From assembly GCF_016127575.1 (NCBI RefSeq), contig NZ_CP066018.1, positions 2,220,001-2,252,000 of the forward strand: a stretch of DNA of 32,000 bases, read 5' to 3'. A program made the translations under genes and the position numbers. This DNA comes from Cupriavidus necator. Its GTDB lineage: Bacteria > Pseudomonadota > Gammaproteobacteria > Burkholderiales > Burkholderiaceae. This document shows, piece after piece, positions 14,883-20,856 of this stretch. The notes under the pieces are model-generated. The model was not told the origin of the DNA. It searched no databases and worked only from the letters and a program-made list of their open reading frames with translations. The stretch's first letter is position 1. Every line of letters begins with the position of its first letter.

Positions 14883-14991
14883 TGAGCAAAGACGCAGCAC
14901 ACGTATGCCGCGTCCGGAGACAACGCCTCCGCGCGATGCCGGCAACCACCGGCGGCGCTGGGGGCAGGCCAGGACCATTGGAGGATCCACC

Positions 14992-16320
14992 ATGCAAGCA
15001 GTCAGCATCGACGCAGCGGCAAAAGGCGCGTCGGCCCAGAAGCAGTCCGTCGCGCGCGTCGCGGGGGCCAGCCTCGCCGGCACCACGCTCGAGTTCTACG
15101 ACCACTTCATCTACGGATCGGCCGCCGCGCTGGTCTTCCCCAAGCTGTTCTTCCCGCAGAGCGACCCGCTGACCGCGACGCTGCTGTCCTTTGCCAGCTA
15201 CGGCGTTGCCTTCGTGGCGCGGCCGCTGGGCGCGGCGATCTTCGGCCACTTCGGCGACAAGATGGGGCGCAAGTCCATCCTGATCATTACGCTGCTGATG
15301 ATGGGCCTGGCCACCTTCGGTATCGGCCTGCTGCCGACCTATGCCGCCGCGGGCGCGCTGGCGCCGGTGCTGCTGGTGCTGCTGCGCGTGGTGCAGGGCC
15401 TGGCGCTGGGCGGCGAATGGGGCGGGGCGGCGATCATGGTCAACGAGCTCGACCCTGAAGGGAAAAGGCGCGGCATCCTCGGCAGCCTGGTGCAGCTCGC
15501 CGCGCCGATCGGCCTGCTGCTTGCCAACGGCGTATTCGCGCTGGTGACCTGGCAGGTCTCGGAAGAAGCCTTCCTGAGCTGGGGCTGGCGCGTGCCGTTC
15601 CTGCTGTCGGCGCTGCTGGTGGGCGTTGGGCTCTACATCCGCTCCAACGTGCGTGAGTCCGGCATGTTCGAGAAGCTGGAGGAATCCCACGCCGAAGCGC
15701 GCGCGCCGATCATGGAAGTGCTGCGCAACTACAAGAAGCAGCTGCTGATCGCCTTTGGCGCGCGGCTGGGCGGCGATATCGCCTTCTACGTGTTCACGCT
15801 GTTCCTGCTGTACTTCGTGCCGACCAAGCTGGGCCTGCCCAAGAGCATCGCGCTCAATGCCGTGCTGCTGGGTGCGGTGGCGCAGATCCTGTTCATCCCG
15901 GTGGCCGGTTACCTGGCCGACCGCATCGGGCGTCGCCCGGTGCTGATGATCGGCGGCATCGGCGGTGCGGTGTGGGCCTTTGTCTTCTTCACGCTGGTCA
16001 AGACCGGCAGCCCGGCTTTGATCATGCTGGCCTCGTTCGTCGGCATGGTGCTGGTGTCGTTCATGTTCTCGCCGCTGGCGTCGTTCCTGCCGGAGCTGTT
16101 CGCCACCCGGGTGCGCGTGACCGGTGCCTCGCTCGGCTTCCAGTTCGCCGGTGTGTTCGGCGGCGCGCTGGCCCCGCTGATCGCGGTGGGCCTGCTCGAC
16201 CGCTTCGGCAGCACCGCGCCCGTTGCGCTGTACCTGGCGGCGGTGTGCGCGCTGATCGCAATCGCCGCGGCGGCCGCGCGGGAAACCAATCGCATGCACC
16301 TGTCCGACGCGGACCGCTGA
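14992..16320 (+). CDS. MFS transporter, metabolite:H+ symporter (MHS) family
   Basis: 442 aa from ATG 14992, with RBS GGAGGA at 14979-14984. The N-terminus LEFYDHFIYGSAAALVFPKLFF and the motifs GHFGDKMGRK / GYLADRIGRRP are typical of the KgtP/ProP/ShiA-type MHS family. It has 12 predicted TM stretches. Confidence 0.88.
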   Translation: MQAVSIDAAAKGASAQKQSVARVAGASLAGTTLEFYDHFIYGSAAALVFPKLFFPQSDPLTATLLSFASYGVAFVARPLGAAIFGHFGDKMGRKSILIITLLMMGLATFGIGLLPTYAAAGALAPVLLVLLRVVQGLALGGEWGGAAIMVNELDPEGKRRGILGSLVQLAAPIGLLLANGVFALVTWQVSEEAFLSWGWRVPFLLSALLVGVGLYIRSNVRESGMFEKLEESHAEARAPIMEVLRNYKKQLLIAFGARLGGDIAFYVFTLFLLYFVPTKLGLPKSIALNAVLLGAVAQILFIPVAGYLADRIGRRPVLMIGGIGGAVWAFVFFTLVKTGSPALIMLASFVGMVLVSFMFSPLASFLPELFATRVRVTGASLGFQFAGVFGGALAPLIAVGLLDRFGSTAPVALYLAAVCALIAIAAAAARETNRMHLSDADR

Positions 16321-16368
16321 ATGCGGACCACGGTGAGCGGCAGTAACAATCTTCTCGTGAGCAGTATC

Positions 16369-17805
16369 GTGAAACAGTTCGACCTGATCATCCGCAACGG
16401 CACCGTCGTGACCGCCAGCGACACCATGCAGTGCGATATCGGCATCGCCGGCGGGCGCATCGTACAGCTCGGCCACGACCTGGGCGAGGCCGCGCAGACC
16501 ATCGACGCCAGCGGCAAGCTGGTCTTGCCGGGCGGCGTCGATGCGCACTGCCACCTGGACCAGCCGATGCCGGACGGCCTCAGGATGGCTGACGACTTCG
16601 GCACCGGCTCGGTGTCGGCGGCCTGCGGCGGAACCACTACCGTGATCCCGTTCGCCGCGCAGGAGAAGGGCCATTCGCTGCGCGCCGCGGTGAACGACTA
16701 CCACCAGCGCGCCGATGGCAAGGCTGTGGTCGACTACGCCTTCCACCTGATCGTGGCCGATCCTACCGAGGCGGTGCTGCAGGACGAACTGCCGGGGCTG
16801 ATCCGCGAGGGCTATTCGTCGTTCAAGGTCTACATGACCTACGACGACCTCAAGCTGAACGACCGCGAGATCCTTGAGGTGCTGTCGGTGGCGCGCCAGG
16901 AGGGCGCGCTGGTGATGGTGCACGCCGAGAATTCGGACTGCATCGCCTGGCTGACCGAGAAGCTGGAAGCGGCGGGCAACACCGCGCCGAAGTTTCACGC
17001 GCTGGCCCGGCCGATGGCGATCGAGCGCGAGGCCACGCACCGCGCCATCACGTTCTCGGAGCTGGTCGACGTGCCGATCCTGATCGTCCATGTATCGGGC
17101 AAGGAAGCGGTGGAGCAGATCCGCTGGGCGCGCAACCGCGGTATGAAGATCTTTGCCGAGACCTGCCCGCAGTACCTGTTCCTGACTGCCGAAGACCTCG
17201 ACCAGCCCGGCTACCACGGCGCCAAGTGCGTGTGCAGCCCGCCGCCGCGCGACCGCAGCAACCAGGAAGTGATCTGGGACGGCCTGGCCGACGGCCTCTT
17301 CACCATTTTCTCGTCCGACCATGCACCGTTCCGCTACGAAGACGCGCAGGGCAAGAAGCCTGGCGGCAAGGAAGTCCCGTTCCAGTACATCCCCAACGGC
17401 ATCCCCGGCCTGGAAACGCGGCTGCCGCTGCTGTTCTCGGCTGGCGTGGTGGGCGGCCGCATCTCGGTCAACCAGTTCGTCGCGCTGACCTCGACCAACC
17501 CCGCCAAGCTCTACGGCCTGCATCCGCGCAAGGGCACCATTGCCATCGGCGCCGATGCCGACCTGGCGATCTGGGATCCGCAGCGTGAAGTGACGATCCG
17601 CAACGCCGACCTGCATCATGCTGTCGACTACACCCCGTATGAAGGCCTGCGCGTGACCGGCTGGCCGGTGACCACGCTGGTGCGCGGCAAGGTGGTGGCG
17701 CATGAGGGCGAGGTGCTGGCCGAGGCCGGCCACGGCCAGTTCCTGCCGTGCGGCCTGCCGGAGATGGCCAGGCCGCGCTATCGCACCTCGGGCGGCAGCC
17801 TGTGA
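16369..17805 (+). CDS. D-hydantoinase / dihydropyrimidinase (cyclic amidohydrolase)
   Basis: All catalytic elements are present: HxH (GVDAHCHL), carboxylated-Lys context (SFKVYMTY), VHAEN, LIVHVS and SSDHAPF. GTG 16369 gives MKQFDLIIRNGTVV, the usual N-terminus. ATG 16321, immediately after the MFS stop, is the alternative start. Confidence 0.88.
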   Translation: MKQFDLIIRNGTVVTASDTMQCDIGIAGGRIVQLGHDLGEAAQTIDASGKLVLPGGVDAHCHLDQPMPDGLRMADDFGTGSVSAACGGTTTVIPFAAQEKGHSLRAAVNDYHQRADGKAVVDYAFHLIVADPTEAVLQDELPGLIREGYSSFKVYMTYDDLKLNDREILEVLSVARQEGALVMVHAENSDCIAWLTEKLEAAGNTAPKFHALARPMAIEREATHRAITFSELVDVPILIVHVSGKEAVEQIRWARNRGMKIFAETCPQYLFLTAEDLDQPGYHGAKCVCSPPPRDRSNQEVIWDGLADGLFTIFSSDHAPFRYEDAQGKKPGGKEVPFQYIPNGIPGLETRLPLLFSAGVVGGRISVNQFVALTSTNPAKLYGLHPRKGTIAIGADADLAIWDPQREVTIRNADLHHAVDYTPYEGLRVTGWPVTTLVRGKVVAHEGEVLAEAGHGQFLPCGLPEMARPRYRTSGGSL

Positions 17806-17842: not shown

Positions 17843-19237
17843 ATGGAACTGACCAACCGCCTGGACGCCACCACTATCGCGGCCCGCGTCGCCGCGGGCC
17901 GCCTCGATCCCGCCGAGGTGGTCGCCGCCTTCCAGGCTCGCATCGCGGCGCGCAATGACCAGCTCAACGCCGTGTTCGAGCAGCGCCAGGAGCTGGTCGA
18001 TGCCGACCTGGCGCAGCTGCGCGCGCGCCTGGCGCAGGGCGAGCGCCCGCTGCTGGCGGGCGTGCCGGTGATCGTCAAGGACGTGATCTGGAGCCAGGGC
18101 CGCCGCGTCACGCAGGGTTCGCAGCTGTATCGCGACTTCATTGCGCCCGCCGACGCGATCGCGGTCGAGCGCCTGCGCCAGGCCGGCGCGATCGTGCTCG
18201 GCATGGGCAATACCTCGGAGTTCGCCTGCAAGGGCCTGACCACCAACAAGGTCTACGGGCTGACGCGCCATCCGCTCGATGCCACGCTGACCGCGGGCGG
18301 CTCGTCTGGCGGCTGCGCGGTGGCGGTGGCGGCCGGCATGGCGCCGCTGGCGCTGGGCACCGACGGCGGCGGTTCCAGCCGGCGCCCGCCCGCGCATGCC
18401 GGCGTGGTCGGCTTCAAGCCTTCCTACGGCGCGATTCCCGATTCGGTCGGCTTTCCCCATGCCTTCAACGGCATCCAGGTGATTGCGCCGATCACGCGCA
18501 CGGTGGCCGATGCCGAGCTGATGTTCGAGGCGTTGGCCGGCGCCGATCCGCGCGATCCCGATACGCTGGGCTTCTCGCTTGGCGCCGCGCGCCCGCTGCA
18601 TACGCTGAAGATCGCGGTCAGCCCGCGCCTGGGCCTGGACACGCCGGTCGACGACGATGTCGCGCAGGCCTTCGAGCAGGCCGTGGCCCGGCTGCAGGGC
18701 GCGGGCCTGACCATCGAGCGTGCCGACCCGGCCTGGCCAAAGGGCGCCGACGAGGCCGCGCTGATGCCGCTGCAGCATGTCGGCCTGGCCAATCTCTACG
18801 GCGAGGCCTGGCGCCGCGACCCGGAGCTGTTCGATCCCGACGTGGCGCGCCAGATCGAGCGCGGGCTGGCCTGGAGCGGCGCCGACGTGGCGCGCGCGCG
18901 CGAAGCCAGCCACCAGATCGCGCTGGCCGTGGCCGGGTTCTTTACCCGCTATGACCTGCTGCTGTGCCCGACCACCCCGTGCGTGGCGTGGCGCAACGAC
19001 CGGCTCGGGCCGGAGCGGATCGGCGGCGTGGCGGTGGAGCCGCGCGCCCATGCGGTGTTCACGCCCTTCTTCAATCATGCGCTGGCGCCGGCCATTTCGG
19101 TGCCCTGCGGCCATGGCCGCGACGGGCTGCCGGCGGGCCTGCAGATCGCCGGCCCGCGCGGTGCCGACCGCAACGTGCTGGCCGCGGCCAGGCTGGCCGA
19201 AAGCGTGCTGGCGCCGCTGCTCAACCCTGCCGGATAA
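17843..19237 (+). CDS. amidase-signature (AS) family amidase
   Basis: 464 aa from ATG 17843, with PVIVKDVI (catalytic Lys context), GGSSGG and GTDGGGSSRRPPAH (Ser-cisSer-Lys triad region). The track start at 17702 overlaps the hydantoinase. Confidence 0.88.
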   Translation: MELTNRLDATTIAARVAAGRLDPAEVVAAFQARIAARNDQLNAVFEQRQELVDADLAQLRARLAQGERPLLAGVPVIVKDVIWSQGRRVTQGSQLYRDFIAPADAIAVERLRQAGAIVLGMGNTSEFACKGLTTNKVYGLTRHPLDATLTAGGSSGGCAVAVAAGMAPLALGTDGGGSSRRPPAHAGVVGFKPSYGAIPDSVGFPHAFNGIQVIAPITRTVADAELMFEALAGADPRDPDTLGFSLGAARPLHTLKIAVSPRLGLDTPVDDDVAQAFEQAVARLQGAGLTIERADPAWPKGADEAALMPLQHVGLANLYGEAWRRDPELFDPDVARQIERGLAWSGADVARAREASHQIALAVAGFFTRYDLLLCPTTPCVAWRNDRLGPERIGGVAVEPRAHAVFTPFFNHALAPAISVPCGHGRDGLPAGLQIAGPRGADRNVLAAARLAESVLAPLLNPAG

Positions 19238-19242
19238 CCGTC

Positions 19243-19986
19243 ATGCGAATCCTTGTCCTGAATCCCAATACCAGCGAAGGCATCACCGCGCGGCTGATGG
19301 CGGCGGCCACCGAGGCCGCGGCCCCCGGCACCGAGCTGGTGCCGCTGACCGCCAGCCGCGGCGTGCCCTATATCGCCACGCGCGCCGAGGCGCAGATCGG
19401 CGGCGCCATCGCGCTGGAGATGCTGGCCGAGCACCATGGCCAGTTCGACGCGGCCATCATCGCGGCCTTCGGCGACCCCGGCCTGATGGGCGCGCGCGAA
19501 CTGTTCGACCTGCCGGTGGTGGGCATGGCCGAGGCGGCGATGCTGTCGGCCTGCATGCTGGGCCGGCGCTTTGCCATCGTGACCTTTGCGCGGGCGCTGG
19601 GGCCCTGGTATGAGGAGTGCGTGGACATGCATGGCCTGCGCAGCCGGCTGGCCGGCATCCGCATGCTGGACGGCAGCTTTGCCTCGGTGTCGGACGTCCA
19701 GGAAGAGAAGGAAGCCGTGCTGGTGGAACTGGCCAACCGCGCCGTGGCGGAGGATGAAGCCGATGTGGTGATCCTGGCCGGCGCGCCGCTGGCCGGCCTG
19801 GCCGCGCGCGTGCGCGACCGCATTCCGGTGCCGGTGGTCGACCAGATGGCCGCCGCCGTCAAGCAGGCCGAGGCGCTGGTCGCGCTGCAGCCGCGCAAGG
19901 CCACCGCGGGCACGTTCCGCCGCCCGGATGCCAAGCCCACGCTGGGTTTGCCCGCGGCGCTGGCAGCGCGCATCGAGCACCGCTAA
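19243..19986 (+). CDS. Asp/Glu/hydantoin racemase family protein (HyuE/Dcg1-like), apparently lacking both catalytic cysteines
   Basis: 247 aa from ATG 19243, 5 nt after the amidase stop. MRILVLNPNTSEG..., AAFGDPGL and VVILAGAPLAG match the family fold motifs. The positions normally occupied by Cys (AC[FW]GDPG and LGCAGM, as I recall them) are Ala75 and Gly180. Confidence 0.8.
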   Translation: MRILVLNPNTSEGITARLMAAATEAAAPGTELVPLTASRGVPYIATRAEAQIGGAIALEMLAEHHGQFDAAIIAAFGDPGLMGARELFDLPVVGMAEAAMLSACMLGRRFAIVTFARALGPWYEECVDMHGLRSRLAGIRMLDGSFASVSDVQEEKEAVLVELANRAVAEDEADVVILAGAPLAGLAARVRDRIPVPVVDQMAAAVKQAEALVALQPRKATAGTFRRPDAKPTLGLPAALAARIEHR

Positions 19987-20014: not shown

Positions 20015-20752
20015 TCAGACCGCGGCGAACACCGCTTCGAGATCGACCTTTTCCTCAGCCGGCAGCTCCAGCCGCAGCGTGCTTTCGACATGGCCGAGGT
20101 GCTCCGCCATCAGCCGCGCGGCGCGCTCGCCGTCGCCGGCTTCCAGCGCATCGACGATGTCGTCGTGTTCATGGTGCGGGCACGACGGCACCCCCGGTGC
20201 GTCATAGAGCGCGATGATCAGGCAGGTCAGCGAGCACAGCTCGCGCATGTACTTGCCCAGGTACTGGTTGCCGGTCATTTCCGCCAGCTTGCAGTGGAAC
20301 TCGCCCGACAGCCGGATGATGGCGCGGCGGTCGTTGCTGTCGCGCGCCTGCGCTTCCTGGCGCGTGGTTTCGCGCAGCGCGCGCACCCCCGGCGCGCCAA
20401 TGGCGCCGGCCAGGTCGCGCACCAGCGCGGGTTCCAGCAGGTGGCGTGAATGCAGCACCTGGCGCGCTTCGGCCACGCTCGGGCTGGAGACGAAGGTGCC
20501 GCGGTTGGGATGGACCGTCAGCACGCCTTCATGCGCCAGCTTGGCAAAGGCCAGCCGTACCTTGGTGCGGCTCACGCCGAACACGCCGCCCAGCTTTTCC
20601 TCGACCAGCTTGGTACCCGGCGGCAGCCGGTGCTCCCAGATCGCGGTCAGGATGCGGTCGGCGATTGCCTCGACCGACGCGCCGCGCGCGCTGTCCGTGT
20701 CGGTCTCATTGATACCGTCGGTGGCGGGCAGGTCGGCTTTGGTTTGTGGCAT
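20015..20752 (-). CDS. GntR family transcriptional regulator, FadR/FCD subfamily
   Basis: 245 aa with an N-terminal winged HTH (KLVEEKLGGVFGVSRTKVRLAFAKLAHEGVLTVHPNRGTFV) and a C-terminal all-helical FCD-like domain. It converges on the racemase homologue with a 28-nt gap. Confidence 0.88.
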   Translation of the reverse strand: MPQTKADLPATDGINETDTDSARGASVEAIADRILTAIWEHRLPPGTKLVEEKLGGVFGVSRTKVRLAFAKLAHEGVLTVHPNRGTFVSSPSVAEARQVLHSRHLLEPALVRDLAGAIGAPGVRALRETTRQEAQARDSNDRRAIIRLSGEFHCKLAEMTGNQYLGKYMRELCSLTCLIIALYDAPGVPSCPHHEHDDIVDALEAGDGERAARLMAEHLGHVESTLRLELPAEEKVDLEAVFAAV

Positions 20753-20799: not shown

Positions 20800-20828
20800 A
20801 TTGTATGGCGGCTTGCCATCAAGTGTAT
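20800..20828. promoter_or_regulatory. second copy of the candidate GntR operator, upstream of the gntR gene
   Basis: ATTGTATGGCGGCTTGCCATCAAGTGTAT lies 48-76 nt upstream of the gntR ATG (20752, minus strand). Its first 12 nt are identical to 14854-14865. Internal inverted repeat ATGGC/GCCAT. On the minus strand the motif's reverse complement ends in TACAAT, a -10-like hexamer. Confidence 0.45.
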
Positions 20829-20856
20829 AACAGCGGCGTCGGACCGGTTGCCGTTC

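Follow-up and report, generated by a model that had tools for sequence, protein, structure and literature searches.

The gene at 19243..19986 on the plus strand of the window (the whole 32,000-nucleotide stretch of Cupriavidus necator DNA analysed here, in whose numbering positions are given unless another contig or locus is named) encodes a hydantoin/allantoin-racemase-like protein that lacks both catalytic cysteines of its family. The cofactor-independent racemases that share this fold are known from textbooks as two-cysteine enzymes, and the branch without either cysteine proved to be large, old and strongly conserved. In our preferred reading, which we regard as quite possible if short of probable, the protein would be a thiol-independent enolate-forming enzyme, most likely stereo-inverting, that acts on the carboxylated cyclic ureide or imide of its operon.

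Translation of 19243-19986 (+) yields 247 amino acids followed by a stop (protein P0001), and the product matches the Pfam family PF01177 (Asp/Glu/hydantoin racemase) over profile positions 1-211 (155.5 bits against a cut-off of 31, E 2.2e-45). An AlphaFold model based on an alignment of 66 sequences reached a pLDDT of 95.9 and a pTM of 0.92, bearing out the view of an earlier note on this DNA that the rest of the fold is well conserved. Together with Foldseek, the model describes two pseudo-symmetric alpha/beta domains, which superpose on the allantoin racemases 5lg5 and 3qvj with TM scores of 0.88-0.92 at 35% identity. The closest solved structures by sequence were 5lfd (E 2.5e-33) and 3qvj/3qvk (E about 2e-32). 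No NCBIfam model matched the protein, and the ESM Atlas supplied only generic names. [quoted passage not shown]

Both former catalytic positions could be placed with a HMMER alignment that is gap-free at the two motifs, where IIAAFGDPG and ILAGAPLAG of the query stand against IACFGDPG and LGCGGM of wild-type HpxA (3qvj). HpxA Cys79 aligns with Ala75 (codon GCC, 19465-19467) and Cys184 with Gly180 (codon GGC, 19780-19782); in the Klebsiella allantoin racemase these two cysteines have been described as the catalytic pair (PMC12661438). The first former catalytic loop, IIAAFGDPGL (residues 72-81; 19456..19485, +), was located by its codons and by alignment to 3qvj and 5lfd. It includes Asp78 (19474-19476), and its AAFGDP is invariant in the clade alignment described below. 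The second, VILAGAPLAGL (residues 176-186; 19768..19800, +), was placed by alignments and codons and carries the clade-specific Pro182. The two features that define a two-thiol racemase, a cysteine in the xxACFGDPG loop and another in the LGC(A/G)GM loop, are thus absent. The earlier note had reached the same conclusion from the motif positions; those positions are correct by the alignment to 3qvj, and the profile alignment that it had proposed puts Ala75 and Gly180, with no cysteine, at the catalytic sites.

It had also placed the protein's sole cysteines elsewhere, in LSACML and YEECVD, and these are indeed the only two, Cys104 (LSACML; 19552..19554, +) and Cys126 (EECVD; 19618-19620, +). 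We considered and rejected the idea that they are relocated catalytic cysteines. Both are invariant in the 120 closest homologues, and the wider clade is variable at these sites (T/L/A/S at the first, Q/S/A/V at the second); they are therefore not replacement catalytic residues. A sequencing slip is excluded as the source of the missing cysteines, because Ala75 and Gly180 are invariant in the same 120 homologues and a change from Ala to Cys takes two base changes.

These 120 homologues (77-100% identity), from Cupriavidus, Variovorax, Comamonas, Bosea, Bradyrhizobium, Ensifer and Aminobacter, contain no cysteine inside either former catalytic loop. Orthologues at 70-99% identity occur in both alpha- and betaproteobacterial genera, and dN/dS within Cupriavidus is 0.03-0.12. 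The racemase-like protein is the best-conserved protein of its operon: its identity is 99% at locus L001, where that of its neighbours is 93-97%, and 81% at a Variovorax locus (L012), where theirs is 64-76%. Within the clade, conservation is highest in the NPN loop and in both former catalytic loops. The gene is intact and under strong selection, with no decay. The suggestion in the earlier note that it is unlikely to be a decaying pseudogene therefore holds, given the confident model, the low dN/dS and the invariance of the loops across a well-supported clade.

We placed the protein in a tree of near-full-length representatives of 50%-identity clusters drawn from the best 150 matches of an exhaustive search, to which three paralogues from the same genome were added, one of them a two-cysteine copy, giving 87 sequences in total. 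Sixty-six of these had no cysteine at either site, 16 had the first cysteine only and 4 had both. The query fell within a clade of 27 representatives (SH-aLRT 99) with the signature AAFGDPG / AGAPLAG together with Tyr43, Glu49, Trp122 and Arg135. One scan of a species-level genome collection returned at least 528 confirmed relatives carrying the clade's two loop motifs. Our search for literature on cysteine-less or pseudo-racemases and on imidase/half-amidase clusters found nothing on this clade, and the resources searched contained neither a publication nor a curated model or solved structure for it.

We compared 28 clade members with 40 two-Cys, 20 first-Cys-only and 4 Gly/Cys sequences. Eight clade-specific positions are invariant in the 28 members: Ala37, Tyr43, Ala75, Trp122, Tyr123, Ala179, Gly180 and Pro182. 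By this comparison and by secondary structure, Tyr43 (19369..19371, +) belongs to the loop that follows strand 2, the counterpart of the substrate loop A described for OpaE (PMC12661438). It is invariant in both the cysteine-free clade and the first-Cys-only class, and is Ser elsewhere, two-Cys racemases included. Trp122-Tyr123 (19606..19611, +) is invariant in the cysteine-free clade only, and Trp122 lines up with a Trp that is conserved in the maleate-isomerase-like partner family discussed below (hhalign probability 69%). Judged from topology, Tyr43 would lie in the pocket, and Trp122 and Tyr123 too have been placed relative to it by topology.

The first-Cys-only sequences (Cys75/Gly180, always with Tyr43) were seen at loci L129-L135, L166 and L170, some of them adjoining an NCS1 permease and PuuE (L131, L134). 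These copies are candidate one-cysteine allantoin racemases, in which Tyr43 might act as the second base.

In the window, the gene follows three others on the plus strand. The first operon gene encodes an MFS metabolite/H+ symporter of the MHS family (14905..16320; PF07690, TIGR00883), and the second a dihydropyrimidinase/D-hydantoinase-type cyclic amidohydrolase (16321..17805; NCBIfam NF009941, 858 bits against a cut-off of 647). A pattern search found the DAHCH motif of this hydrolase intact, and its other metal-ligand motifs were seen by eye. Directly upstream of the racemase-like gene lies an amidase-signature (AS) amidase (17843..19237; PF01425, E 3.7e-91) with an intact GGSSGG. The amidase reading frame opens at 17702, overlapping the hydrolase gene by 104 nt; judged by homology, the ATG at 17843, 37 nt past the hydrolase stop, is the more likely start. 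The amidase stop codon (TAA, 19235-19237) and the ATG of the racemase-like gene at 19243 are separated by 5 nt. A convergent GntR/FCD regulator (20015..20752, minus strand; PF00392 and PF07729) follows, and is conserved beside orthologues.

Neighbourhoods of 80 orthologous loci (70-99% identity) were compared by ORF calling, clustering and tblastn; some of these loci end at contig ends, and related genomes among them are non-independent. Within 8 kb, a dihydropyrimidinase-type hydrolase was present at 57 of the 80, a PF17645 maleate-isomerase/AMDase-like gene at 55 and an AS amidase at 40; at least one of these three partners was found at 70 loci and none at the other 10. The earlier note had raised the question of whether cysteine-free homologues always occur with a hydantoinase and an AS amidase: the pairing is frequent but not universal. 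The transporters were an MHS-type MFS protein in the window and MFS, TRAP or NMT1-type ABC proteins at other loci, which points to an organic-acid substrate. A GntR/FCD gene was often directly upstream in orthologous loci, and in alphaproteobacteria it often also shared the direction of the racemase-like gene.

None of the 80 loci resembles an allantoin cluster: a PuuE-family match was present in only three and an NCS1 match in none. Of 401 genomes sampled evenly across the phylum, 59 contained a relative, and nine loci had the cysteine-free signature, six with the hydrolase within 8 kb and five with the isomerase-like gene. Neither PuuE nor NCS1 had a match at the window operon or at the eight other clade members in this sample. 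Many of the roughly 40 two-Cys loci in the genome sample adjoin PuuE and NCS1, and three of the four loci of the Pseudomonas AllR type (Gly/Glu78/Cys) adjoin an NCS1 permease.

The PF17645 partner family (loci L007-L079, e.g. L042:6440-7216) has the maleate isomerases 4fq7 and 2xec as its best PDB matches. In all 44 of 44 copies the first Cys site is occupied by Gly and the second by Cys (WNGTS ... CTN), so that an arrangement typical of arylmalonate decarboxylase (AMDase) sits on a maleate-isomerase-like sequence.

The same genome holds further members of the family. At C2:2731300-2734700 (L091:6321-9707), genes for an NCS1 permease and a PuuE-type polysaccharide deacetylase flank a two-Cys racemase of canonical type (IACFGDPG / LGCAGM). 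This locus is the genome's real allantoin cluster, so a canonical enzyme already takes care of allantoin. The clade of the query has another cysteine-free member here (52% identical), at C1:1428000-1434000 (L089:4606-9914). Its cluster consists of an MFS gene, a maleate-isomerase/AMDase-like gene with Gly/Cys sites, an amidohydrolase gene, this second racemase-like gene and a GST gene; upstream, on the opposite strand, come an M20 peptidase gene and one of the FAA-hydrolase family. The third cysteine-free copy (GAFGDPG / GGGPLGE; C1:1731831-1732478, L090:7826-8503) is more distant, and its neighbours are a 5'-nucleotidase-like gene on one side and a cation-efflux gene on the other.

Among characterised enzymes, HpxA of K. 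pneumoniae (3QVJ/3QVK/3QVL) shares the fold of the query (TM 0.90, 35% identity), the NPNT, GDPG and AEAA motifs and a C-terminal tail with a conserved Lys, and differs in possessing Cys79 and Cys184. HpxA-type genes adjoin allantoinase and an NCS1 permease, whereas the query adjoins a dihydropyrimidinase-type hydrolase and an AS amidase. The best match in both sequence and fold is AllR of Pseudomonas fluorescens (5LFD/5LG5; E 2.5e-33, TM 0.88-0.92), which also lacks the first cysteine (Gly) but, in the 5lfd sequence, keeps the second and has a Glu three residues on. Cendron et al. reportedly identified this Glu78, in 2016, as the replacement base for the lost cysteine. Unlike AllR, the query has Asp78, part of the family-wide GDPG, and Gly180, and the Glu/Cys features of the AllR type are absent.

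The hydantoin racemases HyuA/HyuE (Sinorhizobium, Agrobacterium, Pseudomonas NS671), which we compared by description, belong to the same subfamily and occupy the same operon slot, beside a transporter, a hydantoinase and an amide hydrolase; in classical hydantoin-utilisation clusters the racemase sits where the query gene sits here (PMC3546935). They are two-Cys proteins paired with N-carbamoyl-amino-acid amidohydrolases, whereas the query is paired with an AS amidase. The diketopiperazine epimerases OpaE and NozR extend this subfamily to new, bulkier ring substrates (PMC12661438, PMC10156859), but keep the Cys/Cys pair that the query lacks. Cysteine mutation abolishes NozR activity (PMC10156859) and nearly abolishes that of OpaE, in which C90S alone retains about 5% (PMC12661438). 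The fungal nicotinate route, with its cyclic imidase and amidase (PMC9304392), offers a chemical analogy only, and the imidase BpIH is PuuE-like and unrelated to the hydrolase of this operon.

Several lines of evidence lead us to favour a thiol-independent enzyme, the intact fold and the purifying selection among them. The racemase family swaps catalytic residues rather than dying, as in 5lfd (Gly/Glu) and in the first-Cys-only proteins with Tyr43 beside NCS1 and PuuE. The two former catalytic loops are invariant in a clade with an SH-aLRT of 99, a sequence pattern which suggests that the pocket is still in use. The operon context is one of ring opening. On this reading the protein would still be an enzyme, its pocket between the two domains presumably kept, and its substrate would be the ring compound of the neighbouring hydrolase, probably a carboxylated cyclic ureide or imide, or the ring-opened product. 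An enolate would form, without a thiol, at the carbon next to the ring carbonyl, most likely resulting in stereo-inversion (racemisation or epimerisation). The proton may be handled from the domain-1 side, by Tyr43 and/or Asp78 or by water activated by Glu97, with solvent serving the other face. The Pseudomonas allantoin racemase, with glutamate in place of its lost first cysteine, would be a precedent by analogy.

Several observations weigh against this. The AGAPLAG loop consists entirely of non-functional residues and no new acid/base side chain is present on the domain-2 side, so a symmetric two-base racemase is unsupported. Asp78 is a residue of the GDPG found throughout the family, with a shorter side chain than the Glu present in Pseudomonas AllR; the ten loci without any partner gene within 8 kb also count against this reading. 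Moreover, 5-substituted hydantoins racemise spontaneously, so a racemase may be unnecessary.

A rival reading is one-sided enolate chemistry, for which two opposed bases are not needed: the protein might, in the manner of AMDase, decarboxylate a malonate-like or beta-carbonyl acid, or else catalyse a tautomerase or double-bond isomerase reaction. AMDase (3DG9, 2VLB) and maleate cis-trans isomerase (2XEC, 4FQ7) are in the same superfamily, and the small residue at the first Cys site mirrors Gly74 of AMDase. Foldseek aligned the query with AMDase at TM 0.6-0.66, the shared Trp122 fits, and query orthologues often have a relative of these enzymes nearby, suggesting dicarboxylate or malonate-type intermediates. 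The match to the PF17645 Amdase profile is weak, however, its E of 3.8e-4 corresponding to 20.6 bits, below the gathering cut-off of 25.9. AMDase requires Cys188 and an oxyanion-hole Tyr and the query has neither: Gly180 stands for Cys188, and VTFA is found where relatives read VTPY, the hhalign probability of 69% making the Tyr mapping moderately secure. We also examined Tyr123 as that oxyanion-hole Tyr and rejected it, VTPY coming directly after strand 5, where the query has VTFA. Maleate cis-trans isomerase, for its part, requires both cysteines, where the query has Ala75 and Gly180. In sequence and fold the query is much nearer to the allantoin racemases, at 35% identity and TM 0.9, than to AMDase, for which the values are about 19% and about 0.6. 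Next to an AMDase-like gene, another decarboxylase would be superfluous. We regard one-sided chemistry as unlikely.

A rather unlikely explanation, in our judgement, is that the protein is a non-catalytic pseudoenzyme that has kept its pocket or oligomer surface as a binding, scaffolding or regulatory partner of the hydrolase, the amidase or the regulator. Inert Ala and Gly at both catalytic sites, with no clear substitute in domain 2, would be expected of such a protein; so would conservation above that of the neighbouring enzymes if it had several interaction surfaces, and the GntR gene often found directly upstream and co-directional in alphaproteobacteria also speaks for this reading. Conservation peaks, however, at the former catalytic loops and the NPN loop and not in surface patches, and the partner genes differ between loci, which argues against a single obligate protein partner. 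We know of no pseudoenzyme in the Asp/Glu racemase fold, and the family's habit, seen in 5lfd, of exchanging catalytic residues without losing activity tells in the same direction. That the protein is instead an ordinary two-thiol racemase that has been misaligned, or a recently inactivated pseudogene, is very improbable. Source annotations do name close homologues 'hydantoin racemase' or 'allantoin racemase', but the gap-free 3qvj alignment, the lack of loop cysteines in the 120 homologues, the variability of the Cys104 and Cys126 sites across the clade, the low dN/dS and the spread of orthologues over two proteobacterial classes all oppose it. The earlier note had proposed a family member with another activity, with different acid/base residues or with a non-catalytic role; the evidence fits this proposal.

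It is possible, if on balance doubtful, that the clade as a whole represents a new thiol-free proton-transfer (or decarboxylating) catalyst on the racemase fold, defining an undescribed step in the breakdown of cyclic ureides or imides. Its working residues would then lie outside the classical positions, with Tyr43, Asp78/Glu97 and Trp122-Tyr123 as candidates, and it would act together with the dihydropyrimidinase-type hydrolase, the AS amidase and the Gly/Cys maleate-isomerase-like enzyme on a carboxylated cyclic ureide or imide. In annotated genomes all members of the fold family go under the name 'hydantoin/allantoin racemase', which for the large cysteine-free branch is probably wrong. If active, these proteins would have a third catalytic-site design in the fold, after Cys/Cys and Gly-Glu/Cys, and would point to a hitherto unrecognised pathway by which soil bacteria such as Cupriavidus, Variovorax, Bradyrhizobium, Bosea and Ensifer break down cyclic amides, which could serve hydantoinase-type biocatalysis. 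If inactive, they would be the first pseudoenzymes known to us in the fold.

Two minor observations concern long relatives and the regulator. Domain fusions were considered as a functional clue and dropped, as the long relatives are tandem double racemases or chimeric calls. Four polypeptides contain two racemase domains in tandem, with Cys/Cys in both halves of P0171, P0192 and P0217 and with Thr/Ser and Ser/Ser in P0268. The sole promoter-like match between 14600 and 21000 (TATACA-18-TACAAT; 20800-20829, minus strand) lies upstream of the GntR gene, and coincides with an operator-like motif described in the earlier note.
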